A stretch of DNA of 64,000 bases, from assembly GCA_036263495.1 (NCBI GenBank), contig DATAGU010000224.1, positions 55,408 through 119,407 of the forward strand. The letters run 5' to 3'. The stretch is from Polyangia bacterium. Lineage in GTDB: Bacteria; Myxococcota_A; Polyangia; Palsa-1104; SHYY01. Each line of letters opens with the position of its first letter. The first letter of the stretch is position 1. A model generated the notes under the pieces. It was not told where the DNA came from. It saw only the letters and a list, made by a program, of their open reading frames with translations, and did not search any database. Position numbers and translations under genes: made by a program. Below are positions 1 through 56,887 of the stretch, one piece after another.

Positions 1-929
1 TCATCCTCATCTCCGACGGTCTCAACGAGCGCATGGATCGCCAGACCTTCATCAAGCTCGGCGAGGACGCGGCGCGCCTGCGCATCCCCATCCACACCAT
101 CGCCTTCTCGCCCATCGACTCCCGCGGCCCCCTCCTCAACCTCGGCGACCTGTCCAAGCGTTCGGGCGGGACCTTCCGCTGGGCCGAGAACCTGGCCGAC
201 ATCAAGCACGAGTTCGGCACCCTCGCCGACGAGGTGCGGCGCCAGTATGTGCTCACCTTCAAGACCGACATCGACGCGCCGTCCCTCGAAAAATTCCACT
301 TCGCCCTGCAGTGCGGCGAGCTGCGCTCGAACGTCCTGACCGGCACGGGCGTCCGCGTCCTGCACGGGCCCGAGGGCGGCGGGCTCCGCTGGTACTGGTG
401 GGTCCTCATCGGCGTGGGCGGCGGCCTCGTCACGCTCTACCTCGTGGGTCTCCTCCTCATGCGTCGCGGGCGCGTGGCGCAACCCGGCGCGATGCCGGTG
501 ACCGCGGCGGCCGGCGGCCAGAGCGTGCCCGTCGGGCGCGCAGCGGCGGCCGCGCGCCCCTCGGCCCCCTTGGCCGCCGCCGTCTCGCAGAGGGCCCCCG
601 CCGCGGCACCAGCGGCGCATGCCCCGGGCGCGGCGAGCGGCGTCCTCGTCGCCGTCACCGGCCCGCTGGCGGGGCGGCGCTACCCCGCGCTCGAGCGGCT
701 CACCATCGGCCGAGGTGCCCAGAACACCATCGACACCGGCGAGGATCCCTCGGTCTCGCGCCAGCACTGCGAGGTGCGCCGCGAGGGCGGCGTCCTCGTG
801 GTCCAGGACCTCGGTTCGAGCGCGGGCACCTGGGTCAACGGTCGGCGCCTCGCCGCGCCGCACCGCCTCGCCGACAACGACCTCGTGCGCGTCGGCGAGA
901 ACACGCAGTTCAAGTTCCGGGTCGAGTAG
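1..929 (+). CDS. VWA domain - single TM - FHA domain protein (3' part; N-terminus lies upstream of window)
   Basis: Frame runs in from position 1 (IILISDGLNE is a VWA-type MIDAS-region motif); hydrophobic TM segment WYWWVLIGVGGGLVTLYLVGLLL followed by basic MRRGR; Ala/Pro-rich linker; C-terminal FHA-like block (RLTIGRG..N.I.....VSRQHCEV....GGVLVVQDLGSSAGTWVNGRRL....L...DLVRVG); stop TAG 927-929. Confidence 0.75.
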   Translation, partial: ILISDGLNERMDRQTFIKLGEDAARLRIPIHTIAFSPIDSRGPLLNLGDLSKRSGGTFRWAENLADIKHEFGTLADEVRRQYVLTFKTDIDAPSLEKFHFALQCGELRSNVLTGTGVRVLHGPEGGGLRWYWWVLIGVGGGLVTLYLVGLLLMRRGRVAQPGAMPVTAAAGGQSVPVGRAAAAARPSAPLAAAVSQRAPAAAPAAHAPGAASGVLVAVTGPLAGRRYPALERLTIGRGAQNTIDTGEDPSVSRQHCEVRREGGVLVVQDLGSSAGTWVNGRRLAAPHRLADNDLVRVGENTQFKFRVE

Positions 930-937
930 GCGGAGCC

Positions 938-2887
938 ATGAGCGAGAACTCCAGCATCATCATCTGCGACCAGCGCTTCGACGTCGGGCAGCGGGTCATC
1001 ACCTGGCAAGAAGACCCCATGTACAGCGCCTACACGCCGCACTGCGTGTTCAATCCCAATCAGGTGGGACCCGACAACCCGGCCATCCCCGGCGGCAACA
1101 CCCTGCGCTACCGCGAGCGCCGCCTGCTCGGCGCCGACCGCTCCCTCGGCCGCCTGCAGCAGATCTTGAAGCAGTTCGTCCTCCATCTCGACGGCCTCAC
1201 CAACTCGCGCGACACCTTCAAGGTCCTGCACGACGAGCGCGGCCTGTCGGTGCACTTCCTCATCGACAACAACGGCGACATCTACCAGACGCTCGACCTG
1301 CGCGACTGCGGCTTTCACGCCTCGGGCGTCAACGAGATCTCGATCGGCGTCGAGATCTGCAACCGCGGCGACGCGAAAAAGGACACGCGGGACGTCTATC
1401 ACGGCAAACGCGACAAGGTGAACTGCGTCATCAACGGCTACCAGTACCTGTCCTACGCGTTCACCGAGGCGCAGATGCAGGCCATGGTGAACCTCGGCCG
1501 CTGCCTGGCGCGCGTCCTGCCCGGCCTGCCCCAGGAGTATCCGCGCGACCCCGGGGGCGGGCAGCTCTGGGACACCATCAACGGCGACCCGCGCGACTTC
1601 GCCGGCTACCTCGGCCACTACCACACCACCGCGCGCAAGTGGGATCCGGGCCCCTTCGACTTCCAGAAGTTCGTCTCCCAGATCCGCGGCCGGCTGTACT
1701 TCCCCCTCGTCCCCGGCCAGGACCAGGCCGAGGTGCCCGACGACAAGGCCGCGGCCGAGAGCGAGGCCCAGGCGCTCTACGACAACAACGAGAAGGGGGG
1801 CGACGGCGGCTACTACCCCGTCGGCCCGCTCGGCGCGAGCAAGCTTTGGCACGGCGGCGTCCACCTGCGCGCCGATCGCGGGCGGTCCGTGGTGGCGCCC
1901 CTCGGCGGTCGGATCGTGGCCGCGCGCATGAAGGCCGAGGACGACTGGCCGGCCATCGGCTCGAACAACATGGTGCTCCTGCGCCACGACGTCGCCGTGG
2001 GCGCCGCGCAGATCCGGTTCTGGACCCTGCTCCACCACCTCGACGCCGAGAGCGAGGACAACGCCGAGGCCCCCGGGTGGCTGCGCAACGGCCGCGGCCG
2101 GCCCTGGTGGAACGCGCTCAAGGGCGGCGAGGTGGCGCTCCTCGACGAGCCGGTGAACGCCGGCGAGGTCGTCGGACACTTCGGCGAGGCCGGCCCGCGC
2201 TCGGCGCGCACCGGGCAGATCCACTTCGCCATCTTCGCCGCCGACGAGATCCACGCCCAGGTGGACCCGAGCTTCTGGGCGCGGGTCGACGGCGTGCGCG
2301 GCGGGCGCTTCTGTGCCGAAGAGAGCATCACCGCGTACATGGACTTCAACCGCAACGGGATCCTCCAGCCCAGGGAACTGGTGGGGTTCTTCCGCGATCC
2401 CTCGCCGCAGTCGAAGAAGGCGCGTGAGACCTTCCGTCGCCTGGCGGTGCGGCACCTGTCGGAGTGGGCGGACAACGGGGGCGACTTCCTCCGCGAGCTC
2501 ACCCGCTCGCGTGAGATCCGCGCCCTCATCCCCGGCTCCCCCTCCCGCATCCGCCAGGTCTACGCCGACCAGATCGAGTCCATGTTCTGGTGGACGGACG
2601 AGGTCGGGCAGCACGCCGGGCTGCCGCCCGACAAGCTCGTCTGGAGCTACCACCCGATCACCTTCATGCTGTGGCTGCACGACAAGCTCAAGGGCGAGCC
2701 CGTCGTCGCCAAGGCGCCGCCCAAGCAAGGCAAGGCGCCGCCGCCCGACATCCAGGGCGGCGACTTCGCCGAAGGCGAGAGCGACTCGGCCGGCGGCTTC
2801 TTCTTCGACGACGAAGACGCCCTCTTCGGCGAGGCCGCCAAGAACCTCACGCTGGAGCAGCTGGCCGGCGGCTACCCCGACAAGTAA
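938..2887 (+). CDS. cytoplasmic Amidase_2 (AmpD/PGRP-type N-acetylmuramoyl-L-alanine amidase) domain fused to degenerate LytM/M23-like domain, 649 aa
   Basis: ATG 8 nt after upstream stop with GGAG just before; motifs SVHFLIDNNGDIYQ, NEISIGVEI and GHYHTTARKWDPGPFDF match Amidase_2 zinc/active-site blocks; central segment WHGGVHL..LLHHL..GQIHFAIF resembles M23 but HxxxD and HxH positions are substituted; no signal peptide; C-terminal ~200 aa unassigned. Confidence 0.7.
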   Translation: MSENSSIIICDQRFDVGQRVITWQEDPMYSAYTPHCVFNPNQVGPDNPAIPGGNTLRYRERRLLGADRSLGRLQQILKQFVLHLDGLTNSRDTFKVLHDERGLSVHFLIDNNGDIYQTLDLRDCGFHASGVNEISIGVEICNRGDAKKDTRDVYHGKRDKVNCVINGYQYLSYAFTEAQMQAMVNLGRCLARVLPGLPQEYPRDPGGGQLWDTINGDPRDFAGYLGHYHTTARKWDPGPFDFQKFVSQIRGRLYFPLVPGQDQAEVPDDKAAAESEAQALYDNNEKGGDGGYYPVGPLGASKLWHGGVHLRADRGRSVVAPLGGRIVAARMKAEDDWPAIGSNNMVLLRHDVAVGAAQIRFWTLLHHLDAESEDNAEAPGWLRNGRGRPWWNALKGGEVALLDEPVNAGEVVGHFGEAGPRSARTGQIHFAIFAADEIHAQVDPSFWARVDGVRGGRFCAEESITAYMDFNRNGILQPRELVGFFRDPSPQSKKARETFRRLAVRHLSEWADNGGDFLRELTRSREIRALIPGSPSRIRQVYADQIESMFWWTDEVGQHAGLPPDKLVWSYHPITFMLWLHDKLKGEPVVAKAPPKQGKAPPPDIQGGDFAEGESDSAGGFFFDDEDALFGEAAKNLTLEQLAGGYPDK

Positions 2888-2919: not shown

Positions 2920-3504
2920 TTACTCGCCGACCGGTTTGAAGTAGGCGCCGATCAGGCCGGTTTTTTCGACCAGAGCCTTGAACTCGGCGGAGACGAGGTC
3001 ATGGAGCAGGCACTGCTTGCACTTGAAGAGATGGTGGCCGTCGGTGCTGCCGGGTTTGAAGACGTACTTCTTCACGCTCGAGATCTGCCCATCTGAGTAT
3101 CGATCAGTGATTGAGCGCTCTTCATCGAGGCAATCGACGATGTCGAGTATGTTCACAACCTGGAATCGCCCAGGCCCATCGTAGGTGAGCGGTAAGAGTT
3201 CGATCGCGTTTCCGAGCAGGGGCGCCAACACCTCCGCCGCACGATCCGAAAAAGCCAAGCCGAGGCCCATGAGGCCGATGAAATCGACCGGTTTGCCGCG
3301 ATTCTTCCGCACCCTGGCGGGCTTCCATTCCATGGGCACCGGCTGCCACCAGTCTGCACAACGCACGCCCTTACCCGACAGCTTATTGAAGACTTTGTAC
3401 CAGGAGACGCCCGGTCGCGAGATGGATGCCAGCAGATCGTCATGCTCGTCTGGATCCGGGTCCAGGAGAAAGATTTTCGATGATGGAGCGGTGTCTTTCG
3501 TCAT
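2920..3504 (-). CDS. putative immunity protein of toxin cassette (194 aa, no family recognised)
   Basis: ATG at 3504-3502 overlaps the TGA of the upstream toxin-like ORF (ATGA); markedly lower GC than flanks (about 50% in 3061-3120); genetic position typical of immunity gene; no family recognised by eye. Confidence 0.5.
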   Translation of the reverse strand: MTKDTAPSSKIFLLDPDPDEHDDLLASISRPGVSWYKVFNKLSGKGVRCADWWQPVPMEWKPARVRKNRGKPVDFIGLMGLGLAFSDRAAEVLAPLLGNAIELLPLTYDGPGRFQVVNILDIVDCLDEERSITDRYSDGQISSVKKYVFKPGSTDGHHLFKCKQCLLHDLVSAEFKALVEKTGLIGAYFKPVGE

Positions 3505-4343
3505 GGGGGGAAGGCCCCGTTCTGTATCTCTCGCGCTAGCTTCTGCAGTTCCTCGAGGATCTTCATGCGCCCGCCGCTTTCCTCGGCCCGCCGGAGGCGA
3601 AAAATGACTGTACGAATCGCCTTGTCCGTATGGAGCCCGTGCCCCACATGCTGGCTCGGCGTGAGCACGACGCCATTGTCTATGCTGTTGATGTCGATGC
3701 CATAGTCGTCGAAGAGCACGCGGCCTTGCTCCGCCTCGCGGTGCGTGCTTGGCACGATATGGTGCACCTCCTCGCTGGAGGTCAACTGCCTGCCGAGTTT
3801 CTTCTCCAGCGCAGCGCGTAGCCGGGTGGCGTTGCCAGTCGTATTCCACTGCTGCGTCGACACGAAGCCAGGCGGCCGACCACTACCGCCACTGACCGAG
3901 TTGGTGCCGCGCAATCCCTGAGCCCGTGCCGTCTGCGCTGGCGTGAGTTCGCGCAGCGCGACGTGAAGCATCGCCGTCGCCTGTCCGAGCCGGCGAGCCT
4001 CCACGAGCGCCCAGATCTCGACTTCACTGAGCGCCAGGGTCTTGGCTGCCGCTCCGGTGCCGACCACGAGCGCCAGAGGACCGCCACCTGTGCCGGTGGT
4101 GGTCAGCGCCCAATATGCCTCCCCCGCACCCGGCCCTCGAGAGGCGCCATCCCGCAAGAACCCCACCAACCGACCGAGTCCCGACAGCTTGCCGACTTCC
4201 TTGAGGAGCTCCGGGCCATGACCCACCAGCCGGGCGGCCGTCCACGTGGTACTGACCAGCACCGCGGCCTGGATACCGGCGTTGCCGGTCGCGATGCCCT
4301 TGATCGTGTTGACGAGGCTCGCCAGGCCATGCTTCACCTCCAT
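3501..4343 (-). CDS. polymorphic-toxin C-terminal module, HNH/EndoVII-fold nuclease of AHH-like type (281 aa from first ATG)
   Basis: C-terminal block EEVHHIVPSTH...NGVVLTPSQHVGHGLH resembles the AHH family signature ([AG]HHIvP plus downstream His residues); N-terminal ~180 aa Gly/Ala/Thr-rich with no housekeeping similarity; stop overlaps downstream gene start; the longer 3501..4478 ORF prefix is Arg-rich read-through and probably not coding. Confidence 0.5.
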   Translation of the reverse strand: MEVKHGLASLVNTIKGIATGNAGIQAAVLVSTTWTAARLVGHGPELLKEVGKLSGLGRLVGFLRDGASRGPGAGEAYWALTTTGTGGGPLALVVGTGAAAKTLALSEVEIWALVEARRLGQATAMLHVALRELTPAQTARAQGLRGTNSVSGGSGRPPGFVSTQQWNTTGNATRLRAALEKKLGRQLTSSEEVHHIVPSTHREAEQGRVLFDDYGIDINSIDNGVVLTPSQHVGHGLHTDKAIRTVIFRLRRAEESGGRMKILEELQKLAREIQNGAFPP

Positions 4344-4420
4344 GCGGTGGTCAAGAGGGACCGCTCTTCGTCGAGGCAATCGACGATATCGAGCATGTTG
4401 ACGGCCTGAAAGTGCCCAGG
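4334..4420 (-). pseudogene. remnant of a second immunity-gene copy (fragment only)
   Basis: 4361-4420 aligns to 3115-3174 of the intact immunity gene at about 50 of 60 identical nt (hand alignment); in that frame it encodes FQAVNMLDIVDCLDEERS versus GRFQVVNILDIVDCLDEERS in the intact gene; frame ends at TGA 4336-4334 overlapping the toxin ATG. Confidence 0.45.
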
Positions 4421-4514
4421 ATGCCAAGCATCGCGGTCGCGCTTCTCGATCGCAGGCCGTTGCGCTCGGCACATACAAGGCACATGAAACTAAGGAGGCC
4501 GCGGCAGCCTAGCT

Positions 4515-4849: not shown

Positions 4850-5158
4850 TCAGTGACCCGGGAAGCGGGCGATGGCCTCGATGATGAGGACGACCGCATA
4901 GATCGGCGGAAACAGCATCGGGATCCCCACCGTCAGCTTGAGTCCGCGACGCTCGTCGGCCAGGTGCATGTAGTAGAGCGCGACGCAGCCGGCCTTGACC
5001 AGGGCCAGCGAGATGAGGAGCGCGATCATCGTGGCGCGCTGCTCCTTGAGCACCTGGGCCACGGCCACTTCGAGGGCCGTGAGGGCCGTGAGCGCCACGA
5101 AGACGATGAGGTACTTCTTCTTGTGGGAGTGCTGACCGCTTGCAGTGTGTTCCGACAT
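4850..5158 (-). CDS. cytochrome c oxidase subunit IV (prokaryotic COX4_pro family), 102 aa
   Basis: MSEHTASGQHSHKKKYLIVFVALTALTALEVAVAQ....KAGCVALYYMHL matches the bacterial subunit IV pattern; immediately downstream of subunit III. Confidence 0.65.
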   Translation of the reverse strand: MSEHTASGQHSHKKKYLIVFVALTALTALEVAVAQVLKEQRATMIALLISLALVKAGCVALYYMHLADERRGLKLTVGIPMLFPPIYAVVLIIEAIARFPGH

Positions 5159-5180
5159 GGAAGCCTCGGCCTCGAGATGA

Positions 5181-5816
5181 TCAGATGAGATAGATGAAGG
5201 TGAACACCAGGATCCACACCAGATCGACGAAGTGCCAGAACAGGCCGGCGACCTCGACGTGGCTGGCGGGCGGATGCGGGCCATCGGTGTACTTGCCGCG
5301 GAGCGCAAAGAGGAGGACCACGCTCAGATAGATGACACCCGTCAGCACGTGGAGACCGTGGAACCCGGTCACCGTGAAGAACGTCCCCGGGAAGCGGATG
5401 TCGCCTCCTTGGAAGATGGAGCCGGAGAGCGTCATGTGCTGCTCATGGATGAGGTGCGTGTACTCGAAGACCTGGCCGCAGAGGAAGAACAGGCCGCCCA
5501 GGACCGTGAGGCCGAGGTAGGTGCACAGCGCCTTCTTGTTCCGCTCCTGCGCCCCGGCCAGCGCCATGACCATCGTCACGCTGGAACAGATGAGCACGAA
5601 GGTCATGAGGGCCGTGAAGTTGATCCCGAGGTGCCGCGTGGGGTCGGGCCAGGAGTGCGAACCAGAGCGCTGAATGCCGTAGTTGAGCAGCAAGCCGGCG
5701 AAGGACATTCCGTCCGTCAGGAGGAAGATCCACATCCCGACCTTGCCGTGGGTCGCTCCTTCGAAGCTGAAGCCCTCCTCGCGGTGCATCGAGGGCGCGG
5801 CGGCGGATTGGCTCAT
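5181..5816 (-). CDS. ctaE: cytochrome c oxidase subunit III
   Basis: Seven-TM protein ending LFWHFVDLVWILVFTFIYLI (classic Cox3 C-terminal motif), GMWIFLLTD near N-terminus; ATG at 5816 preceded by GGAGG; ORF-track start 5825 is TTG. Confidence 0.85.
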   Translation of the reverse strand: MSQSAAAPSMHREEGFSFEGATHGKVGMWIFLLTDGMSFAGLLLNYGIQRSGSHSWPDPTRHLGINFTALMTFVLICSSVTMVMALAGAQERNKKALCTYLGLTVLGGLFFLCGQVFEYTHLIHEQHMTLSGSIFQGGDIRFPGTFFTVTGFHGLHVLTGVIYLSVVLLFALRGKYTDGPHPPASHVEVAGLFWHFVDLVWILVFTFIYLI

Positions 5817-6090
5817 TGCGGTCAAGACCTCCGGTATCGGGGTTCAGGGACGGGCGGACACTATCACACTCATCCGCAGGGGACAACTCCGCCGCGCACC
5901 TCCCCGAACGTAGAGATCTCATGGAGTTGGGCCCACATCCGGGGTCTTGGGCCCATGCCCTCGTCCACCCCTTGGAGGGGGCTCGGGGGGAGGTCGAAGG
6001 CTCGGGTGAGCCCCCCTGGAATGTCCGGTGGCGAATACGGCAGACAGGCTGATGGCGGCCCGATCCGATCCTTTCGGGCCGGGCCCGGCC

Positions 6091-11620: not shown

Positions 11621-11898
11621 AATCCGTCTCCCTCGCCCGCGCTGTCTCGGGAACGCGAGCATCGTAACAAGGGCGGGCGGCGCAGGGAAGCGGGCAACGA
11701 CACGTTCCTGCGCGCAGGGAACGCGCGGCACCGTCGGATGTCTGAGCGGGTGGGGCGAAGAGGGAGGGGACCGCGGGATCCGGCCGTCTTGGACTCTTTG
11801 GGGAGGGGGCCGGTCCATCGGGTGGTTTCATGGGGCTCCAAGGATGGAGTTGCAATCATCCGGTGGTTCTGCTGAACTGGCAGATACCTTTTGAGACT

Positions 11899-11918
11899 GT
11901 TCTGGACTGATCCAGAAC
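11899..11918. promoter_or_regulatory. perfect palindrome gttctgga-ctga-tccagaac about 30 nt upstream of cheW start; candidate operator
   Basis: Seen directly; 8-bp arms, 4-bp spacer; lies in the 330-bp divergent intergenic region. Confidence 0.3.
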
Positions 11919-11948
11919 TTGCTTGGCTTACGCCCAGGGACGCGGTCG

Positions 11949-12428
11949 ATGTCGAGCATTGCCGGAGATGCGATCGAGCGCCGTTTCCTTTTGCTTCGGG
12001 TGGGCCCCCGATTATGTACGGTTTCATTGGAATCTGTCATTGAGACCTTGCGGCCCTTGCCCATCGAGGGGCTGGCCGATGCGCCCCGGTTCATCGAGGG
12101 GTTGAGCGTCGTGCGGGGGGAGCCGGTGCCGGTGGTGAACCTGGCGGCGCTCCTCGGGGACGCGACGATCCGGCCGGCACGACGCTTCGTCATGGTGCGG
12201 GCGGGGCACGGACGGCGGATCGCGCTGGCCGTGGAGGACGTGGTGAGCGTGGTGCGCCTCGACGAGGCGATGTTCCGGGAGAGGCCGCCGCTCCTGCAGG
12301 AGGCGCTGCCCGGGTGCGTGGAGCGGCTCGGGGCACTCGACGGCAAGCTGGTCGCGACGCTGGCGACGATGCGCATCCTGCCCGAGGAGGCCTGGGGCGG
12401 GATGGCCCTCGCGGGGGGCGGCCGATGA
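11949..12428 (+). CDS. cheW: chemotaxis coupling protein CheW
   Basis: CheW-like domain (RRFLLLRVGPRLCTVSLESVIE...FIEGLSVVRGEPVPVVNL); ATG at 11949; stop overlaps cheR start (ATGA). Confidence 0.8.
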   Translation: MSSIAGDAIERRFLLLRVGPRLCTVSLESVIETLRPLPIEGLADAPRFIEGLSVVRGEPVPVVNLAALLGDATIRPARRFVMVRAGHGRRIALAVEDVVSVVRLDEAMFRERPPLLQEALPGCVERLGALDGKLVATLATMRILPEEAWGGMALAGGGR

Positions 12429-13918
12429 CCCCCGTGATGGGAGGGGACGGGCTGGCGCTCCTGCAGGCCCGCATCGAGGAGCGTTTTGGTCTGTGCTGCT
12501 CGGAGTGGCAGCGGGAGCGGCTCGCCGCGCTGATGGCGCGCCGCGGTTCGGCGGGAGGCCCAGGGCGGGAAGCGGAGGAGGAGCCTTCTTCGCAGGCGCT
12601 GCACGGGGCGGCGATGCAGCTGGTGGTGGGCGAGACGCACTTCTTCCGCGACGTGGCGCAGCTCGATCTCGTGGCCGAGGTGGCACTGCCGGCGCTGCTC
12701 GCGGCGCGCGGCGGGCCGGTGCGGATCCTGTCGGTGGGCTGCTCCTCGGGGGAGGAGCTGTATTCGCTGGCGATCCTATTGCGGGAGCGGGGGCTGCTCG
12801 GGCCGGAGCGCGTGGTCCTGCGGGGGATGGATCTCAACCCCGGGGCGATCCGCGCGGCCCGGCGCGCGCGCTACGACGCCTGGGCGCTGCGGGGTCTGTG
12901 TCCGGCGCGGCGCGACCGCTGGTTCGAGCGCCACGGCGACGAGTATCGGCTCGTGGAGGAGATCCGGGCGGCGGCGAGCTTCGAGGAGCGCAACCTCTTC
13001 GCGCCGGATCTCGCGCGCTGGCTGCCCGGCAGCGTCGATGTCCTCCTATGCCGGAACGTGATGATCTATTTCTCCGAGCGGGCGATGCGGCGGGCCATCG
13101 CCTGCTTCACCGAGGCGCTCGTGCCGGGCGGTTTCTTGTTCCTCGGGGCGAGCGAGACGCTGCGCGGCGTCTCGGATGCGTACGAGGTGGCGTTCGCGAA
13201 GGACGCCTGTTACTACCGCCGTCGCCGCGAGCCGGTGTCGCGGCCGGCGCGGCTCACGCCCCGGACCGAGGAGGCGCTCCAGCCGCCGTTCGTGCCTGCC
13301 AGGGTGGGGGGAGAGGCAGCGCACCCGGGCCGGGCGCCGCTCGAGCGGGTGGGGCGAGGGTCGGACGGAGCGGGAGAGGCGCTGTGGAGCGCACGACCTG
13401 AGGCGGGGGCCGAGCGAGCGCTGCTCGGGCCGCTCCTCGATCTCTTCGAGGCTGAGCGCTTCGACGCCGCGCTCGCGCACATCGCCGCGCTGCCGGCGCG
13501 CGAGGCGACACGGCCTGGGGTGCAGCTGGCGCGCGCCGCCGCGCTCACGACCTGCGGCCGCCTCGGGGAGGCGGAGCACGTCTGCGCGGAGCTACTGATG
13601 AAGGAGGGGTACGCGGCCAAGGTGCACTTCCTGCTCGGGCTATGCCACGAGGCGGGCGGCGATCCCGGGGCCGCGCTGCGGCACTACCGGGAGGCCACCC
13701 TCCGCGATCCGGGCTTTGCCATGGGGCACCTGCATCTGGGTCTCCTCGCCGGGCGGCGGGGGGACACGGTCACGGAGCGCATGGCCCTGCGGGTCGCCGC
13801 GAGCCAGCTGCCGTATGAGCGGCGCGACCGGCTCCTCCTCTTCGGAGGCGGCTTTGGCCGGGGCGCTCTCATCGAGATGGCGCGCGCGCGGCTGTGCGCG
13901 CTGGGAGAGGTGCATTGA
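12425..13918 (+). CDS. cheR: chemotaxis protein methyltransferase CheR with C-terminal TPR region
   Basis: CheR N-terminal domain and SAM-binding fold (VRILSVGCSSGEELYSLAILL, LLCRNVMIYF); C-terminal TPR-like repeats (HFLLGLCHEAGGDPGAALRHYREA). Confidence 0.85.
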   Translation: MTPVMGGDGLALLQARIEERFGLCCSEWQRERLAALMARRGSAGGPGREAEEEPSSQALHGAAMQLVVGETHFFRDVAQLDLVAEVALPALLAARGGPVRILSVGCSSGEELYSLAILLRERGLLGPERVVLRGMDLNPGAIRAARRARYDAWALRGLCPARRDRWFERHGDEYRLVEEIRAAASFEERNLFAPDLARWLPGSVDVLLCRNVMIYFSERAMRRAIACFTEALVPGGFLFLGASETLRGVSDAYEVAFAKDACYYRRRREPVSRPARLTPRTEEALQPPFVPARVGGEAAHPGRAPLERVGRGSDGAGEALWSARPEAGAERALLGPLLDLFEAERFDAALAHIAALPAREATRPGVQLARAAALTTCGRLGEAEHVCAELLMKEGYAAKVHFLLGLCHEAGGDPGAALRHYREATLRDPGFAMGHLHLGLLAGRRGDTVTERMALRVAASQLPYERRDRLLLFGGGFGRGALIEMARARLCALGEVH

Positions 13919-14475
13919 AGAGTCGATCGGGTTCGCCAGAGGAGCAGCTCGCGGCCCTGCGCCGGAGTTTCGACGAGTCGTTTGCCTCGCCGCCCGCGGT
14001 CGACGACCGGGTGCGACAGAACATGCTGGCGATCCGCGCCGGCGGCCGGCGTCTGGTCGTCCCGGTGGCGCGGCTGGCGGGGGTGGAGGCGAGGCGGAAG
14101 ATCGTGGCCTTGCCCGGCGCGAGCGGGGGGCTGCTCGGGGTCGCCGGGGTGCGCCGGCGACTGGTCGCGGTCTATGGGCTGGCGGAGCTGCTCGGGGAGG
14201 CGCGGGGCCAGACCGAGCCGCGCTGGTTCCTCCTGGTCGGCCGCAACGCCGATACGGCCCTCGCGATCGAGGAGCTGGTGTCCTACCTGCAGGTGGATGA
14301 CAGCGTGCTGCGGCCGGCGGCGGAGGCGGCGGCGGGCCACCGCTATGTGCGCGAGGTGCTGGCGCGCGGCACGGCGCTGTGGAGCGTGCTCGACGTGCCG
14401 CTCGTGCTCGAGGATCTGGCGCGAGCGCGGCCGGCCGAGGGTCTGCACCCGCTCGACGCCGGGACGCCCTCATGA
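13894..14475 (+). CDS. second CheW-like coupling protein
   Basis: CheW-like fold (RQNMLAIRAGGRRLVVPVARLAGVEA...); GTG start per ORF track, start uncertain; stop overlaps mcp ATG (ATGA). Confidence 0.7.
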   Translation: MRAGRGALKSRSGSPEEQLAALRRSFDESFASPPAVDDRVRQNMLAIRAGGRRLVVPVARLAGVEARRKIVALPGASGGLLGVAGVRRRLVAVYGLAELLGEARGQTEPRWFLLVGRNADTALAIEELVSYLQVDDSVLRPAAEAAAGHRYVREVLARGTALWSVLDVPLVLEDLARARPAEGLHPLDAGTPS

Positions 14476-15941
14476 AGCGCTGGACCCTGGGACAGCAGAT
14501 CGGGATCGGTCTCCTCCTGCCGATCCTGGTCCTGGCCGGCCTCGGCCTGTTCTCCTACTGGAGCACGCAGCACCTGCTCCAGATGAACAACGGGGTGGGC
14601 CAATCGCACGACGCGCTGGCCGCGGTGAATCAGGTGGTGTTGACGCTCACGGAGGTGGAGACCGGGCAGCGGGGGTACATCATCACCGGCAAGGAGGAGT
14701 ACCTCGAGCCGAGGCGCGAGGCGCTCGAGAGGCTCGAGACTCACCTCGAGCGGCTGCGGAAGCTGATAGAGGACCATCCGGGGCAACAGCGGCGCCTCGA
14801 GGAGCTGCGCGGGTCCATCCAGAGCCGGATGGCCGAGCTGGTCAAGGTCCTCGAGCTGCGGCAGCGCGAGGGGCTGGAGTCGGCGGCGCGGCGGCTCTCG
14901 GAGGGGCGCGGCAAGAGGGACATGGACAGGATTTACGGCGTGGCCCGCGAGATGGCCCGCGCCGAGGAGGAGCGGCTGCAGGAGCGCGTCCAGGACGCCG
15001 ACGCCGCGGCCCGTCGGGTGACGAGCGTCCTCCTCTTCGGGTCGTTGTTCGCGGTGCTGGTGGTGTTCTCCGCCGGCCTGTTCATCGTGCGCGGCCTCGA
15101 CCTGCAGATCGGCACGGTGGTGCACCACCTGCAAAGCTCGGCGGCCGAGCTGCAAGCCTCGGCCACGCAGCAGGTGCGGGGGGCCAAGGGGCAGGCGGCG
15201 ACGACGACCGAGGTGTCGACGACGATGCACGAGCTGGTCTCGACCTCGCGTCAGATCGCCGAGAGCGCGCAGCGGGTCACGGTGCTGGCGAACGAGACCA
15301 CGGCGGTGGCGCAGACGGGCGACGTGACGGTGCAGGCGGCGCAGGAGGCGATGGAGGTGGTGCGCCGGCAGATCGACCGGGTGGTGCTGCACATGCTGGA
15401 CCTCGGCAAGCGGTCGCAGGAGATCGGCGGGATCCTCGACATCATCAATGAGCTCGCGGAGCAGACCAACATCCTGGCCATCAACGCCACGATCGAAGCG
15501 GCCGGGGCGGGGGATTCGGGGCGGCGCTTCGCGGTGGTGGCGGACGAGATCCGCAAGCTGGCCGACCGCGTGGGCGGGTCGACCAAGGACATCCGCTCGC
15601 TCATCGAGGAGATCCGCGCGGCGGCCAACACGACGGTGATGGCGACCGAGGACGGCTCGAAGGCGGTGGAGGCGAGCGCGCGCAAGTTCGGGGAGGTGGC
15701 GCAGAACTTCCGCAACATTGCGGGGTACGTGGCCAACACGGCGCAGGCGTCGCGCGAGATCGAGCTCAGCACCAAGCAGCAGACCACGGCGGTCGAGCAG
15801 GTGAGCACGGCCGTGGGCGAGGTGGCGCAGACGGCGCGGGAGACGGAGGGGAGCTCGACGCGCACGACGCAGGCGGCGGGGCAGCTCGTGGAGTTGTCGA
15901 ACCAACTGCTACGGCTCATCCGGCGCGAGGCCAGGGTCTGA
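14472..15941 (+). CDS. methyl-accepting chemotaxis protein with CHASE3-type periplasmic sensor, HAMP and MCP signalling domain
   Basis: N-terminal TM, CHASE3-like coiled region (QVVLTLTEVETGQRGYIITGKEEYLEP), second TM, HAMP, highly conserved MCP hairpin (INELAEQTNILAINATIEAARAG..GRRFAVVADEIRKLA). Confidence 0.85.
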   Translation: MKRWTLGQQIGIGLLLPILVLAGLGLFSYWSTQHLLQMNNGVGQSHDALAAVNQVVLTLTEVETGQRGYIITGKEEYLEPRREALERLETHLERLRKLIEDHPGQQRRLEELRGSIQSRMAELVKVLELRQREGLESAARRLSEGRGKRDMDRIYGVAREMARAEEERLQERVQDADAAARRVTSVLLFGSLFAVLVVFSAGLFIVRGLDLQIGTVVHHLQSSAAELQASATQQVRGAKGQAATTTEVSTTMHELVSTSRQIAESAQRVTVLANETTAVAQTGDVTVQAAQEAMEVVRRQIDRVVLHMLDLGKRSQEIGGILDIINELAEQTNILAINATIEAAGAGDSGRRFAVVADEIRKLADRVGGSTKDIRSLIEEIRAAANTTVMATEDGSKAVEASARKFGEVAQNFRNIAGYVANTAQASREIELSTKQQTTAVEQVSTAVGEVAQTARETEGSSTRTTQAAGQLVELSNQLLRLIRREARV

Positions 15942-15965
15942 GCCCCGAGCCCCCGGACAAGAACG

Positions 15966-18083
15966 ATGGCAGATCTGGAGGTCTACTTCCGCGCAGAGGC
16001 CGCTGACCTCATCGAGCAGCTGACTCGGGGTTTATTGGATCTCGAGAAGGACGGCAGCCGGGTCGACGTGGTGGGGCATTGCTTCCGCCTCGCGCACACG
16101 CTCAAGGGGGCGGCGCGGGTGGTGGGCCGAATGCAGGTGGGGGAGCTGGCGCACGCGATGGAGGATGCGCTGGCCGCGTACCGCGATGGCTCGCTGCCGA
16201 TCGATCGGCAGTCGGTGAGCGACCTCTTGCGGCTGCTCGAGATCATTCGCCTCGAGGCGCTGGGAGAGGCGGCGCCTTCGCCGGTGGCCGCGGCGCCCGG
16301 GGCGGAGGCGGAGCACGAGGAGGCGTTCGAGACGGTCCGGGTGGCGATCGCGCAGATGGACGAGCTGCTCGATGGTCTGTCGGAGGTGGCGGTGCAGCTC
16401 GGGGCGCTGCAGGGGCGGGCGCAGCAGGTGGGCCAGATGGAGCGCCTGGCGGCGTCGTTGATCGAGCGCGTGGGCGCGGCGGGTGGGGCGGGGCTGTCGG
16501 GGCCGGCCGAGCTGCGCCCGCTGCTCGTCGAGCTGCACCGCACGTCGGGGCAGGTGCAGCGCGAGCTCGACGCGAGCCTGGCGCGCATGGCGCGCGAGCT
16601 CGGGGGGGCGCAGTCCCGGGCGAGCACGCTGCGTCTGATGCCGGTGAGCGCGATCTTCACGCCGCTCGAGCTGGCGGTGCGCGACGCCGCGCAGGCGCTC
16701 GGCAAGCGGGTGGAGTTCGAGACCGAGGGCGGGGACGCCCGGCTCGAGGGGCATGTGCTGGCCGCGGTGCACGACGCGCTCCTGCACGTGGTGCGCAACG
16801 CGGTGGCGCATGGCATCGAGGCGGAGGAGGTGCGGCGCGCGGCGGGGAAGCCGCCGGTGGGCCGCGTGCGCCTCCGGATCGAGGGTCGCGGGCGGCGCAT
16901 CGCGTTCCTGGTGACCGATGACGGCGGCGGGGTGGATCTGGCGGCGGTGCGGCAGGCGGCGGTGGCGCGGCAGGTGATCGGCGCCGCGGAGGCGGCGGCG
17001 CTCGGGGACGAGGCAGCGCTCGAGCTCGTGTTCCGCGGTGGGGTGAGCACGAGCGATACGGTGACGGGCGTGTCGGGGCGCGGGGTGGGGCTCGACGTGG
17101 TGCGCGAGACGGTGGCCCGGCTCAAGGGCGAGGCGCACATGCACACGACGCGGGGCCAGGGCGCGACGGTGACGATGGTGGTGCCGGTGTCGCTGTCGGC
17201 GATCCCGGTGCTGCTCATGGTGCAGGGGGGGGCGTCGGTGTTGATGCCGCTCGATGCGGTGCACGCGACGCGCCGCGTGGGCGGAGACGAGATCGGGCAG
17301 GGGGCGGACGGGGCGTTCCTCTTGCACGAGGGGGAGGTGGTCCCCTTTGTGCCTTTGTCGGCGCTGCTCGGCGGCGCGGTGGCCGAGCGCGCCCAGCCGG
17401 AACACCACGGTTGGATGCCGACGCTGGCTGGGCCGCAGCAGGCAGACAACCGTGGTGTTTCGGCTCAGGCGCGCTGGTCGGTGGTGATCGTGCAGGCGGG
17501 CGCGCGGCGGGTGGGGGTGGGCGTGGAGCGGCTGCTCGGTACGATGGACGTGGTGGTGAAGCCGCTGCCGCCCACGGCTCGGACGTCGGGGTTGGTGGCG
17601 GGGGCGGCCTTCGATGCGCAGGGGGACCCGCTGCTGGTGCTGGATCCGCGGGGGATCGGGGATGGGGCCCGGGTCGCGGCGGGGACACGGATGGAGAGGC
17701 CGGCGCCGCGACGCCGCCTGCCCATCCTGGTGATCGACGACTCGCTGACCACGCGGATGCTCGAGCGCAGCATCCTCGAATCGCTCGGGTACGAGGTGGA
17801 TCTGGCGGCCTCGGCCGAGGAGGGGCTCGAGCGGGCACGCCAGCGGCGCTACGGGCTCTTCATCGTGGATGTGCAGATGCCGGGCATGGACGGCTTCACG
17901 TTCACCGAGGTGACGCGGGCGGACGCCGAGCTCGGCGCGGTGCCGGTGATGCTGGTGACGTCGCAGTCCTCGCCGGCGGACCGGCACCGCGGCATGGCGG
18001 CGGGGGCCTCGGCCTACATCGTCAAGGGGGAGTTCGATCAGCGGCAGTTCGTCGGCCGGGTCGCGGAGCTCCTGGGAGGATGA
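15966..18083 (+). CDS. cheA: hybrid histidine kinase CheA with C-terminal receiver domain
   Basis: HPt (CFRLAHTLKGAARVVG), dimerisation, HATPase (GRGVGLDVVRE), CheW-like domain, and C-terminal REC (ILVIDDSLTTR...FIVDVQMPGMDG). Confidence 0.9.
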   Translation: MADLEVYFRAEAADLIEQLTRGLLDLEKDGSRVDVVGHCFRLAHTLKGAARVVGRMQVGELAHAMEDALAAYRDGSLPIDRQSVSDLLRLLEIIRLEALGEAAPSPVAAAPGAEAEHEEAFETVRVAIAQMDELLDGLSEVAVQLGALQGRAQQVGQMERLAASLIERVGAAGGAGLSGPAELRPLLVELHRTSGQVQRELDASLARMARELGGAQSRASTLRLMPVSAIFTPLELAVRDAAQALGKRVEFETEGGDARLEGHVLAAVHDALLHVVRNAVAHGIEAEEVRRAAGKPPVGRVRLRIEGRGRRIAFLVTDDGGGVDLAAVRQAAVARQVIGAAEAAALGDEAALELVFRGGVSTSDTVTGVSGRGVGLDVVRETVARLKGEAHMHTTRGQGATVTMVVPVSLSAIPVLLMVQGGASVLMPLDAVHATRRVGGDEIGQGADGAFLLHEGEVVPFVPLSALLGGAVAERAQPEHHGWMPTLAGPQQADNRGVSAQARWSVVIVQAGARRVGVGVERLLGTMDVVVKPLPPTARTSGLVAGAAFDAQGDPLLVLDPRGIGDGARVAAGTRMERPAPRRRLPILVIDDSLTTRMLERSILESLGYEVDLAASAEEGLERARQRRYGLFIVDVQMPGMDGFTFTEVTRADAELGAVPVMLVTSQSSPADRHRGMAAGASAYIVKGEFDQRQFVGRVAELLGG

Positions 18084-27899: not shown

Positions 27900-27996
27900 G
27901 GCGCGATGCTAACACCAGAGCGCCAGGACCTCGGGAGGAAGAAAACGCCCTTCTGCTCGGGAAAACCGGCTGCTAGTATGCCGGAGTCGAGGAGGG

Positions 27997-29286
27997 GTGG
28001 TGGACTCGACGTATAGATTGGCTCGTCCGTGGACGACGACGGGGGGGAGAGCGACCGGCGAGGGGAGCGCGGCTGCGGTCTCCGAACTCGAGGGATATTT
28101 GCTCAAGGGGCGTTACCGTGTCGAGGCGCTTATCGGCCGCGGCGGGATGTCGCTCGTCTATGGGGCGACCGATCTGCTCTTCGGGCGCCGCTGCGTGGTC
28201 AAGGTGGCGCTCGGTGAATCGTGTCGCGCCCGCATCGAGCGGGAGGCGTTCATCGGCGCGAACCTGCGGGGGGATGGGTTGGTCGAGGTGTATGACCGCG
28301 GGTGTCTGCCCGATGGGGAGACCGCGTTCGTCGTGTTCGAGCGCCTCCAGGGCGAGACGCTCGGGCAGCGGCTCGGCCGGGGGGGGCTCCTGTCCTGGCA
28401 GGAGGCCTTTCATATCGCCCGGGAGGCGGCGGTCCCGCTCGCGATCGCCCACGAGGCCGGCGTCGTTCACCGGGACGTCAAACCGGAGAACCTGTTCCTG
28501 TGTGTCTCGGGCGAGGTGCGGCTGCTCGATTTCGGCATCGCTCGGGTGGCGGGCGATCCGCCGCTCACGGGCCCGGGGGAGCTTCCCGGGACGCCTCGCT
28601 ACATGGCCTACGAGCAGGTGGCGATGCCCCATGCGGTCGATCACCGGGCCGACATCTATGCGCTCGGATTGTTGCTCCGTGCCGCCGTGGCGGGCGACAT
28701 CGCCTTGCCCCAGCCGGGCGTGCTCGAGCCGCTCGCCTTTGCCCGCGTCCTGCGACAACAGCTCGACCTGCGGGTCCTCGCGCCCTGGCTGCCGCACAGC
28801 GTCGCCCTGGTGATCGAGCAGGCCTGTCACAGGGAGCGGGAGCGCCGGTATCAGACGATGCGCGAGTTCCGGCGCGCACTCGAGATCGAGCTCCGGCGCC
28901 AGGGGGGGATCGTGGAGTTCCAGGTGCCTCCGCCCCAGCATCCCCTCCTGAACTTGAAGGGGGCCCTGGGGCAGAGGATCGCGATCGGGTTGCTCGTGTG
29001 CCTGGGCGTCGCCGGCCTGCAAATGCTCCGGGGCCCGAGGGGGGGATCCGCCATCGTCTCCCCGGTGTGGGATCCGGCCGCGTCCTCCATCGCCCCGCCC
29101 GCGAAACGTCTTCCCCCGCGCCCGGCCCCGTGCGCCCCGGGAACGATGCCTCAGGGACAGGGCCAGGGGCAGGGGGGCCGGGAGCAGGGCCAGGGGGGAA
29201 AGAAGGTCCCTGCCGCGCGCGTACATGGGCAGGGCTCGAGAGCGCTTCACAACGAACTGATGGGTTTCGGGGGGGATCCCTTATGA
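27997..29286 (+). CDS. Ser/Thr protein kinase
   Basis: IGRGGMSLVY glycine loop, VVKV Lys, HRDVKPENLFL catalytic loop, DFG, APE-like (PRYMAYEQ); GTG start after GGAGG. Confidence 0.8.
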   Translation: MVDSTYRLARPWTTTGGRATGEGSAAAVSELEGYLLKGRYRVEALIGRGGMSLVYGATDLLFGRRCVVKVALGESCRARIEREAFIGANLRGDGLVEVYDRGCLPDGETAFVVFERLQGETLGQRLGRGGLLSWQEAFHIAREAAVPLAIAHEAGVVHRDVKPENLFLCVSGEVRLLDFGIARVAGDPPLTGPGELPGTPRYMAYEQVAMPHAVDHRADIYALGLLLRAAVAGDIALPQPGVLEPLAFARVLRQQLDLRVLAPWLPHSVALVIEQACHRERERRYQTMREFRRALEIELRRQGGIVEFQVPPPQHPLLNLKGALGQRIAIGLLVCLGVAGLQMLRGPRGGSAIVSPVWDPAASSIAPPAKRLPPRPAPCAPGTMPQGQGQGQGGREQGQGGKKVPAARVHGQGSRALHNELMGFGGDPL

Positions 29287-36348: not shown

Positions 36349-40281
<3,933 letters not shown>

Positions 40282-40736
40282 AGAGAAAGCATATCTCAAG
40301 CCACACTCGAGGTGACGCATAACGGCAGATGACCTTATTGGCGCCGGGTGGGGCGGGGTGGATCGGAGGGTGCGGTGGGTGGGCCCCGGCCAAGGCGATG
40401 AGGCCGGTTACGTAGGAAACGACCCAGGCAAACCACCTCCGTCCCCGGGCGGCATCGCCACGACCCGCCGAGCGCCCCCACCGCCTCGTAAACCTCGCCC
40501 GGCCGCGCTTGGCGGTCGATCGCCAGTCCCACCAAGAGCGGCCCCGGAGTGATAAGCCTCCGCACGAGTGGGGGCCGACGATCCCGAGAGGCCCTTGCCC
40601 CCCGACCAGTTCCTCTCGACGGGCCTCCCTACCCCTGGGGCGGCTCGTCTCTGGCCTTCCCCTTGGGCCGATGCAATAATGGGCTGGTCCGACGGTGGCT
40701 CGAGGACAGAGCCGATGCGCGTACGAAGGAGAGGAT

Positions 40737-43209: not shown

Positions 43210-44095
43210 TCTCGCCCGTGCCGGGCATGGAGAAGGTCAGGCAGTAGAAGAACCGATTGAGCTGCTCGGCCCGCACGTCCACGGCGCCGGGGGGGAGGTG
43301 CTCGACCGGGCAGTGCGGGGCGGGATCGTAGAACGTCACCAGGCGGAAGGTCAGCCGGTGATAGAGGCTCTGGCGACGCGAGCGATCGAGCTGCTCATCG
43401 ACGACCACGATGGGCGTGCCCGGCACCGCCACGCGCGCCATCTCGGCGAGCGCGCGCGCCGGCTCGCGATACCCCGCGATGCCGCCGACGTGAAACACAC
43501 GATCGAACACGCCATCGCCAAACGGCAGGGCATGGGCGTCTGCGAGCAGGAGGCGCGTCTCGCGGTCCCCGGCGCGGCGCAGCCGGTCGCGGCAGATGCG
43601 CAGCATCCCCCGGCTGAGATCGAGCCCCCAGATCTCGACCGCCTCGGCGGCCGCACCGGGCAGGCCCCCCGACAGGCTCGGTGGCAGGCGGCGCCGCACC
43701 AGCGGGAGATCCGCGCCCGTGCCCACGCCGATGTCGAGGATGCGCACCGGCCGGCCATCGCTGCGAGGGGTGAGGCGCTCGAGCGCCATCCGCGCGAGAT
43801 AGCCAGCGCGCATGTCGGCGGCGCTCCCGACCTGGAACAGGGGCAGCGTGTACTGCACCGCGGGATCATGCAGCGGGGCCAGGTGATCGTAGAGGAGACG
43901 CATGAAGCGATCCGAGCCTCGCACCGCGTCCTCGTCGTAGAGGCTGGGGAGCCCGTCCTCCACGGGCCACGCGACGCCGCAGTCGTGGCAGCGCAGCACG
44001 CCGGTGTCGAGGCGCGCCGCGACGCTCCCCTCGAACCCGAGCCCCCCGCGGCACCGCGGGCAGACGAGGTGCTGCACGTCGCCGGGGGCGATCAT
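43169..44095 (-). CDS. class I SAM-dependent methyltransferase with N-terminal Trm112-like zinc ribbon
   Basis: LVCPRCRGGL....LRCHDCG zinc ribbon; ILDIGVGTGADL (motif I), LLADAHALPFGDGVFDRV (motif II/post-II); ATG 44095 overlaps stop of upstream kinase gene (ATGA); the rest of the 821-aa ORF is antisense read-through. Confidence 0.7.
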   Translation of the reverse strand: MIAPGDVQHLVCPRCRGGLGFEGSVAARLDTGVLRCHDCGVAWPVEDGLPSLYDEDAVRGSDRFMRLLYDHLAPLHDPAVQYTLPLFQVGSAADMRAGYLARMALERLTPRSDGRPVRILDIGVGTGADLPLVRRRLPPSLSGGLPGAAAEAVEIWGLDLSRGMLRICRDRLRRAGDRETRLLLADAHALPFGDGVFDRVFHVGGIAGYREPARALAEMARVAVPGTPIVVVDEQLDRSRRQSLYHRLTFRLVTFYDPAPHCPVEHLPPGAVDVRAEQLNRFFYCLTFSMPGTGEITSAGGPASRARE

Positions 44096-47988: not shown

Positions 47989-48150
47989 TCTATCAAATCG
48001 CCGCCCGCGCCATCGGCGCCGCCCCGCACCGGCCCTGGAGAGTCGGCGCGCCGGGCCTCGCTGGATCCCAGCGTTGGATCCCTACCGCTGATAAACCCAT
48101 CAGCTATTCCCGCGCTTGCACCCATCGCTCGCAGCAAATTACTATGATCT

Positions 48151-52725: not shown

Positions 52726-52791
52726 CAGGCGAGGAAGTGCGCGTCTGCGGGCACTCTACCAGAAGGCCTCGTAGCTGCCAAGGGAGGGGGG

Positions 52792-56749: not shown

Positions 56750-56887
56750 GCAAGCATCTCGATCCCCGCAGGGCCGACGCCGGAGCCGTCGAGCGCCTAC
56801 CCTGCCAGGTAGCGCTTGCCGTCGCTGAAGCGGCTGGCGTTGCGAGCAGCCTGCGCTACGATTTGCCAGGTTGCCGGTAGAAGACTC

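Follow-up and report, generated by a model that had tools for sequence, protein, structure and literature searches.

The amidase–LytM protein is a 649 aa protein encoded on the forward strand at positions 938 to 2887 of a stretch of Polyangia bacterium DNA, the window, which is the whole 64 kb piece of contig DATAGU010000224.1 that was analysed. It is composed of four parts, a small β domain, an Amidase_2 domain, an M23/LytM fold and a family-specific α-helical domain with an acidic tail. This amidase–LytM fusion is representative of a large uncharacterised family of several hundred Myxococcota proteins. Its gene is co-transcribed with that of a bitopic VWA-TM-FHA membrane protein (TM, transmembrane segment), and the two genes form an operon here. 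The protein may be an undescribed cell-wall factor of the T6SS (type VI secretion system). The reading that is tentatively preferred, at somewhat less than an even chance, is that of an active peptidoglycan amidase that would be under the control of two elements, a non-peptidolytic LytM domain acting in cis and the membrane partner acting in trans, and that would serve T6SS-related work on the cell wall. Nucleotide positions below are those of the window and residue numbers those of the 649 aa protein; L-numbers denote related loci and P-numbers related proteins.

Gene, family and domains of the amidase–LytM protein

The open reading frame (ORF) at 938..2887 (+) is a genuine gene. GC content at its codon positions 1/2/3 is 0.68/0.44/0.96, its ATG lies 8 nt past the stop codon of the preceding gene, and that gene has a matching signature with a GC content at third codon positions (GC3) of 0.94. 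Long antisense and off-frame ORFs across the same interval have GC3 values of 0.50–0.71 and are considered artefacts of 70% GC DNA. A longer in-frame start, the GTG at 311, was rejected, as translation from it would run across the upstream FHA gene in a different frame and M1 is where the family alignment begins. The AlphaFold2 model of the 649 aa protein, made from an alignment of 121 sequences, has a pLDDT of 89.1 and a pTM of 0.82, and the latter suggests that the domains are held in a fixed mutual arrangement. The gene and its parts are:

938..2887, + strand: amidase–LytM–C-terminal domain gene, stop codon included, 649 aa product
938..1117, + strand: small N-terminal β domain, residues 1–60 ('SSIIICDQRFDVG.RV'), with model strands at residues 6–9, 12–15, 20–22 and 58–60
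1121..1723, + strand: Amidase_2 domain (AmpD/AmpDh2/PGRP-type), residues ~62–262, from Pfam PF01510 and Foldseek; Zn ligands H83, H227 and D236 and catalytic residues E139 and K234, assigned by comparison with AmpD
1745..1795, + strand: linker helix of the AlphaFold2 model, residues 270–286, ending in a conserved NNE with the invariant E285
1805..2257, + strand: M23/LytM-fold domain, residues ~290–440, with the site H305-x3-H309, H367, Q427-x-H429
2039..2134, + strand: family-specific insertion of ~30 aa within the LytM fold, residues 368–399, with the invariant W381, from alignments and the model
2258..2695, + strand: family-specific, mostly α-helical C-terminal domain, residues 441–586, with invariant E509, W510, L562, P563, Y571 and P573
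2696..2884, + strand: low-confidence linker and acidic tail, residues 587–649 (pLDDT 44–72)
2807–2881, + strand: end of the tail, DDEDALFG...LTLEQLAGGYPD

A word-indexed search with the protein returned 676 homologues at E≤0.001. The best 120 of these are nearly all full-length (594–672 aa, one of 540 aa), share 40–86% identity and align with a coverage of 85–100%, mostly 99–100%. An exhaustive search of representatives at 50% identity yielded 1,524 proteins at E≤1e-3, of which 149 reach E≤1e-30, and relatives are encoded at 151 loci in species-representative genomes. The best 80 of the 151 loci all come from metagenome-assembled genomes that are almost all labelled Myxococcota, with Polyangia, Kofleriaceae, Haliangiales and Nannocystineae among the lineages, and the source annotations of the relatives read just 'amidase', 'AmpD' or 'hypothetical'. 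An earlier note, made from the letters of this DNA, had described a fusion in cis of an Amidase_2 enzyme to a LytM-like segment and thought it unusual. The architecture was read correctly, but it is not a one-off given the several hundred Myxococcota proteins that share it, and M23 and Amidase_2 domains are also combined in phage lysins. The endolysins of staphylococcal phage 2638A and actinophage Lysin A carry both domains in one chain; they differ from the window protein in their canonical M23 motifs, their domain order and an attached cell-wall-binding domain. A phage origin was considered and rejected, as PHROGs match only generic amidase/endolysin families and viral contigs carry amidase-domain relatives and never the three-domain protein; an origin as a defence system was likewise dropped, PADLOC giving no match. 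Distant relatives of 770–820 aa at L084–L086 (P0210, P0173) have a far longer LytM insertion and tails ending in W..W.QGEW.

The Amidase_2 domain is matched by Pfam PF01510 at residues 80–239 with an E value of 2.6e-17; the match spans profile positions 8–131 of 131 and scores 63.8 bits, the cut-off being 26. H83, E139, H227, K234 and D236 are each retained in 119–120 of the 120 homologues. The motifs by which the amidase blocks had been judged intact are all present, and that judgement stands. In an alignment of the family profile with Escherichia coli AmpD, the site residues E139, H227, K234 and D236 pair with E116, H154, K162 and D164, and the third Zn ligand is an Asp like in AmpD. Among PDB structures the model is closest by Foldseek to AmpDh2 (4bol) and AmpD (2y2b), with phage amidases and PGRPs next; the matches to AmpDh2, AmpD and several PGRPs have a probability of 1.0. 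AmpD, AmpDh2 and AmpDh3 share with the window protein the fold, the His/His/Asp Zn ligands, the Glu and the Lys, and AmpD and AmpDh3 are also made without a signal peptide. The window protein differs from all three by its additional N-terminal β, LytM and C-terminal domains, and from AmpD by a family context of a VWA-TM-FHA partner and T6SS clusters instead of recycling genes. The nearest single-domain relatives of the amidase are exported lipoproteins and phage amidases, and the AmpD equivalog model NF008758 of NCBIfam scores 17.9 bits against a cut-off of 143; judged by its sequence, the protein is not an AmpD orthologue. Because the catalytic residues are invariant, the domain is taken to be a catalytically competent N-acetylmuramoyl-L-alanine amidase.

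The presence of a complete M23/LytM fold in residues ~290–440 is confirmed at the level of the structural model. Foldseek matches this domain to DipM (7qrl), Csd2 (5j1k), lysostaphin (4qpb), LytM (2b13) and EnvC (4bh5), and a search of the PDB with the family profile is topped by the LytM domain of DipM (E 1e-4), with lysostaphin and LytM next. The similarity of the 300–440 region to M23 peptidases, proposed earlier on the basis of short motifs, is thus upheld. Pfam Peptidase_M23 (PF01551) only reaches a sub-threshold 21.9 bits against a cut-off of 28.7, at residues 305–351 and profile positions 3–42 of 96, because both the Pfam and the hhalign alignments are broken by the insertion at 368–399, which forms helices at 380–383 and 391–395 in the AlphaFold2 model. 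An hhalign alignment of the intact profile to LytM mispaired the strand of the catalytic His with the insertion and was discarded in favour of one with the insertion deleted, in which the profile aligns with the LytM catalytic domain end to end. In this alignment, for which segments of the LytM sequence were corroborated by the PDB profile match, H305 pairs with H210, H309 with D214, H367 with H260, Q427 with H291 and H429 with H293.

The zinc ligands of M23 peptidases are the His and Asp of an HxxxD motif and the second His of an HxH motif, and the catalytic pair that positions the nucleophilic water consists of the first His of HxH and one further conserved His, according to a study of the Csd1 and Csd2 structures (PMC5053510). 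Neither motif occurs in the window protein, whose corresponding segments, WHGGVH (residues 304–309) and GQIHF (residues 426–430), are as previously quoted. H305-G-G-V-H309 has an invariant His at the position of the Asp, and Q427-I-H429 keeps the second (ligand) His and has lost the first (catalytic) one. H305, H309, H367 and H429 are retained in 82–91 of ~90–96 distant representatives, and E285 is shared by all 120 homologues and by 81 of 96 distant representatives. Position 427 in turn is variable among distant representatives, where it may be Q, L, E, V or M. Among the 170 members whose N-terminus is intact, 143 have Gln (143 of the 167 signal-less members, two of which have Glu), and all three Sec-signal relatives have Glu. 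The claim of the earlier note that two of four metal ligands are lost does not hold, as M23 has three ligands, two of which are kept (H305 and H429), the Asp is replaced by the invariant H309, and the other change concerns a catalytic His. The same note had called the domain degenerate, which is right insofar as it is non-canonical and wrong insofar as it implies decay, given that His occupies four of the five active-site positions and is conserved there family-wide. Conservation across the family speaks against chance or decay as the source of this pattern, and the alignments indicate a site that is remodelled under selection, being non-canonical without having decayed. As far as can be inferred from the residues, the site probably retains metal binding and probably does not cut peptides, so that the domain would act as a binding or regulatory module. 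By analogy, LECT2 comes nearest to such a site, as it has an M23 fold without one catalytic His and is non-enzymatic (PMC9662197). No HxxxH variant of LytM was found in the literature searched.

Like the window protein, EnvC, NlpD and DipM possess an M23 fold in which canonical HxxxD and HxH are missing and are functionally tied to an amidase, and DipM has a Q-x-H-F-E motif in common with the window LytM domain. In contrast to these proteins, the window LytM domain is fused in cis to an Amidase_2 domain and strictly conserves four His and a Glu, and the protein has no export signal. DipM, Csd2 and SpoIIQ have lost ligands, whereas the window site keeps two of the three ligand positions and has an invariant His at the third. 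An activator of the EnvC/NlpD type, a class cited in the earlier note, is therefore not a fitting model, failing on location, on the Amidase_3 class of the partner enzymes and on the loss of ligands.

The β and amidase module also occurs in the short relatives P0236 and P0241, where it comes after a lipoprotein signal peptide. The C-terminal ~210 aa (residues 440–649) match no Pfam family in scans of 21 members, in keeping with the earlier description of the region as unknown, and residues 441–586 have no PDB match. The C-terminal domain is modelled with a pLDDT of 89–98 within the full-length protein and of 52 when modelled alone. A profile search with it recovered only short proteins on short contigs that contain no other Pfam domain and are probably fragments of family members. 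Within the tail, D624, L637, L639, L642 and G645 are invariant in an alignment of 28 sequences, and an L.L..L..G[YF] ending is common to nearly all signal-less subfamilies and absent from the Sec-signal relatives. Kofleriaceae tails (L044, L047, L074) contain a conserved G-T-S-M-R-S and two Cys (DPC...PEC) around L.L..L..G[FY], neither of which is present in the window protein.

At 41 of 72 loci (for example L083:2911–3132, L027:11910–12122, L021:5158–5400 and L002:~11883–12014) the amidase gene shares its 3' end with an overlapping small ORF of ~40–80 aa. This ORF encodes a TAT-type signal, (P)TRRAF(V/L)..GAAAAA, and an invariant W-I-G-H-x at its C-terminus before the stop codon, and has no Pfam match. 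Candidate roles for its product are those of an immunity protein, of an inhibitor and of a TAT 'hitchhiker' carrier.

Membrane partner and linkage to type VI secretion

The gene directly upstream of the amidase gene encodes a membrane protein of which the window contains the following:

3..929, + strand: 3' part of the partner gene (GC3 0.94), its 5' start lying beyond the left edge of the window
within it, + strand: the last part of a periplasmic VWA-like domain, a TM helix at 390–461 and a cytoplasmic FHA domain at 702–896

The FHA domain is recognised by Pfam with an E value of 2.5e-19. Full-length partner homologues of ~520 aa comprise a signal peptide, a periplasmic VWA domain, a TM segment and a cytoplasmic FHA domain, and in the partner at L040 the VWA domain exceeds the Pfam threshold. 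In at least 44 of ~70 loci the partner gene is the next one upstream in the same orientation, and the median gap between the two genes is 9 nt. Several variants occur: in some lineages the partner consists of VWA and TM alone with a short basic tail, in others there is a separate VWA-TM gene together with a zinc-ribbon-FHA gene, and at L027 a Ser/Thr kinase with a PEGA domain takes its place. At L084–L086 the VWA-TM partner has a short basic cytoplasmic tail, which is extremely Lys-rich in L086, and this tail is the charge complement to the acidic amidase tail. Docking of the amidase tail on the FHA domain via a phosphorylated Thr was considered and rejected, as there is no conserved tail Thr across the subfamilies and the neighbouring genes are not enriched in Ser/Thr kinases. 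The Kofleriaceae-type gene order (L045, L047, L063) runs from a PD40 β-propeller gene (−) and a small TM gene (−) through DUF1287 (+), VWA-TM-FHA (+), amidase–LytM (+) and the mini-ORF (+) to a secreted protein of ~350 aa without a Pfam match (+), a DUF5924/DUF2914 membrane protein (−) and an aminotransferase-like gene (−), the last called by eye.

The domains of the partner are reminiscent of a known T6SS signalling pathway. PpkA (TagE) is a T6SS kinase with a periplasmic VWA sensor domain (PMC3224232), and Fha1 (TagH) is the FHA effector of the same threonine-phosphorylation pathway, which is antagonised by TagF (PMC13584744). The periplasmic VWA domain of the partner is like that of PpkA and its cytoplasmic FHA domain like that of Fha1, so that the partner looks like a fusion of a PpkA-type sensor and an Fha1-type output on one chain. 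Relatives of the family in T6SS clusters moreover have TagF, FHA proteins and a Ser/Thr kinase as neighbours. The partner differs from PpkA and Fha1 in that it has no kinase, carries VWA and FHA on one polypeptide, and in some lineages lacks the FHA domain or has it encoded by a separate gene.

The amidase genes themselves are embedded in T6SS clusters in several genomes. At L002 the family member is found past Hcp, TagJ, TssE, TssF, ClpV and VgrG, two genes after VgrG; at L021, L027 and L040 it immediately precedes Hcp, TssE, TssF and TssG, with ClpV, TssB and TssC also present at L040; and at L066/L076 it lies between TssB/C/E/F and TssK/L/M. The three-domain relatives P0151, P0158 and P0172 (L115–L118) are 34–38% identical to the window protein, have Sec signals and an E-x-H site and are without the acidic tail. 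Such Sec-signal relatives are found beside TagF, TssM, TssL and TssK at L116, and at L117/118 beside TssJ, TssK, TssL and several FHA proteins, one of which is a VWA-TM-FHA protein. In a neighbour-joining tree, where family members group into a few large clades whose local gene order is conserved, T6SS-embedded loci occur as the sister of the window's clade, at the base of a second Polyangia clade and in the Sec-signal outgroup. These positions suggest that linkage to the T6SS is ancestral and was followed by later detachment.

Proposed function and rival explanations

It is proposed that the amidase and its partner constitute an ancestrally T6SS-associated cell-wall module, which in the window would have been reduced to a detached two-gene operon. 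The metal site of the LytM domain appears to be rebuilt from three His; it has another His and an invariant Glu close by and lacks the His that opens HxH. The domain would no longer be peptidolytic and could instead hold the stem peptide or a protein partner in cis, or regulate the amidase. The membrane partner may tether or gate the amidase at the inner membrane, such that peptidoglycan would be cut or processed in step with assembly or firing of the T6SS. To our knowledge, how the apparatus gets past the cell wall is not known for most T6SS. Two peptidoglycan remodelers have been described for T6SS assembly, the VanY-type L,D-endopeptidase TagX, from Acinetobacter and Burkholderia, and MltE, from enteroaggregative E. 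coli (PMC13584744). The proposed module would be functionally like these two, as all contain a peptidoglycan-cleaving domain and are tied to the T6SS by locus or function. MltE is however a lipoprotein, and TagX is membrane-anchored and has its catalytic domain in the periplasm, unlike the window protein, which has no export signal, and the family belongs to another enzymatic class and has a dedicated VWA-TM-FHA partner.

If this interpretation is correct, the family provides a third and enzymatically different solution to the cell-wall problem of the T6SS, with its own partner built from parts of the PpkA/Fha1 pathway. Its LytM domains, with their conserved HxxxH, H, xxH arrangement, would form a new class, and the family would be the first pairing in cis of LytM and Amidase_2 in a cellular protein. 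A 2026 review of T6SS accessory factors makes no mention of 'amidase', 'LytM', 'M23' or 'von Willebrand'.

Several observations weigh against this proposal. None of the 121 close family members, the window protein included, has a segment resembling a signal peptide or TM helix, which agrees with the earlier statement that a signal peptide is absent and leaves the route to the peptidoglycan unexplained. The small TAT-signal ORF is missing from the window's clade and from a second Polyangia clade. There are no T6SS genes within the 64 kb window, ~90% of the family loci have no T6SS gene inside 10 kb, and the neighbours in Kofleriaceae are DUF1287, PD40 and housekeeping genes. The tree that suggests an ancestral linkage is a rough neighbour-joining tree. 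The FHA domain encoded in the window keeps G-R and S-x-x-H but reads S-S-A-G-T where the family has S-T-N-G-T, an Ala replacing a conserved Asn. The idea of the earlier note that the protein might be secreted by a non-Sec route gains partial support from the VWA-TM-FHA operon and the T6SS clusters, which do not however distinguish between an effector, a remodeler and a cytoplasmic enzyme.

The protein is unlikely to be an antibacterial effector delivered by the T6SS, which would be loaded on the spike or tube by means of its C-terminal domain and tail and injected into the periplasm of a rival to strip stem peptides. In favour of an effector, the lineage of the window is predatory, and the positions of family members two genes past VgrG (L002) or immediately before Hcp (L027, L040) are compatible with it, as is the export-signal small ORF at the 3' end in 41 of 72 loci, a layout resembling that of effector and immunity genes. 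T6SS effectors are described as having no signal sequences (PMC11582642), as is the case for this family. However, the Sec-signal three-domain relatives in T6SS clusters point to the producer's own periplasm, and the family genes lie among regulatory, membrane-complex and baseplate genes and not in vgrG/PAAR islands. As to loading, the signs point both ways: VgrG is near at L002 and Hcp adjoins at L027 and L040, neither of these genes is in the window, and Pfam finds no loading domain (MIX, FIX, PAAR, Rhs) in the protein. The few large clades with conserved local order and the native GC3 of 0.96 do not favour an effector either, and in the window's clade there is no candidate immunity gene or conserved downstream gene. 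The conserved partner is a signalling-type membrane protein, and AmpDh3, the sole Amidase_2 precedent known, is disputed (Colautti 2023, cited in PMC11582642).

An AmpD-like muropeptide amidase that works in the cytoplasm independently of the T6SS is likewise considered improbable. Such an enzyme, the first of the options offered in the earlier note, would cleave anhydro-muropeptides imported in the course of cell-wall recycling, the LytM-like and C-terminal domains would bind peptide or regulate, and the FHA partner would serve as a tether. The missing signal peptide, the invariant catalytic residues, the closeness to AmpD and AmpDh2 with an Asp as third Zn ligand as in AmpD, and the distance of most loci from T6SS genes can all be accommodated. 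There is also a precedent in the mycobacterial CwlM, a signal-less amidase homologue in the cytoplasm that works with the FHA protein FhaA (PMC4946905, PMC6180346), although for the window protein the resemblance is limited to adjacency of an FHA gene. CwlM is an Amidase_3 protein in which phosphorylation of T382/T386 drives FhaA binding, whereas the window protein is an Amidase_2 protein with invariant catalytic residues and no conserved tail Thr. The score of the AmpD equivalog model far below its cut-off and the affinity of the amidase with exported lipoproteins and phage amidases run counter to a recycling enzyme, and recycling genes of the ampG, nagZ or ldcA type are not among the conserved neighbours. 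Nor would such an enzyme account for the exported three-domain relatives or for the repeated occurrence of family genes within T6SS clusters.

It is quite doubtful that the protein is a bifunctional hydrolase whose LytM domain is still a metallopeptidase, with a three-His zinc site, H367 and a Gln, Glu or water at the altered position, so that both the MurNAc-L-Ala bond and a peptide bond would be cut. Three His make a competent Zn site in many metalloenzymes, H305, H309, H367 and H429 are strictly conserved, the Glu at position 427 in all three exported relatives with an intact N-terminus could be a general base, and active M23 and Amidase_2 domains are combined in phage lysins. Against this, the first His of HxH belongs to the M23 catalytic pair (PMC5053510), and its place is taken by Gln in 143 of 170 members and by hydrophobic residues in others. 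As LECT2 shows, loss of a catalytic His can leave an M23 fold without enzymatic function (PMC9662197), and the 30 aa insertion and the invariant E285 beside the site could occlude it, like Glu74 in latent Csd3.

A more unorthodox idea, to which we assign only a slim chance, is that of a cytoplasmic PGRP-like detector and processor. The three-His pocket of the LytM-like domain would bind muropeptides released by an attack, the amidase would cleave them, and the acidic tail would signal to the FHA domain or the basic tail of the partner and thereby license T6SS assembly. If true, this would be a bacterial sensor of cell-wall damage that gates a contractile weapon. About equally unorthodox is the alternative that the folded enzyme is exported by hitchhiking on the ~60 aa TAT-signal WIGH peptide that is encoded across the stop codon in 41 of 72 loci. 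With a signal-less family, exported relatives carrying Glu at 427 and an overlapping TAT mini-ORF at hand, the export route is directly testable. Finally, a pure regulator or scaffold that acts by protein contacts with the FHA partner, for which the adjoining FHA gene and the CwlM precedent could be quoted, is very improbable given that all amidase catalytic residues are kept in 119–120 of 120 homologues, a sign of selection for catalysis, and that the tail has no conserved Thr.

Other genes in the window

Two genes lie on the opposite strand immediately downstream of the amidase gene:

2920–3510, − strand: Imm11 immunity gene (GC3 0.74)
3501–4478, − strand: AHH HNH/EndoVII nuclease toxin gene (GC3 0.74)

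The AHH/Imm11 pair was considered as a part of the amidase system and rejected, as its GC3 is 0.74 against 0.96, it is convergent with the amidase gene and it is absent from all related loci. Since its GC3 also departs from the 0.94–0.96 of the neighbouring genes and it occurs in no related locus, the pair is taken to be a horizontally acquired toxin-immunity cassette.

Further along, the window encodes four Ser/Thr kinases and an FHA-sigma54 activator (27913–29286, 36349–40407, 44092–48081, 51253–52755 and 56813–58327). Two of the four kinases are fused to AAA_16/TPR regions of more than 1,300 aa, and an FHA-sigma54 activator is also encoded directly upstream of the exported relative P0158 (L115). 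The remaining genes noted are an ordinary chromosomal context, with cytochrome oxidase subunits IV and III at 4850–5825 on the − strand and a chemotaxis cluster at 11919–18083 that comprises CheW, a CHASE3-MCP and a CheA-CheW-receiver hybrid.

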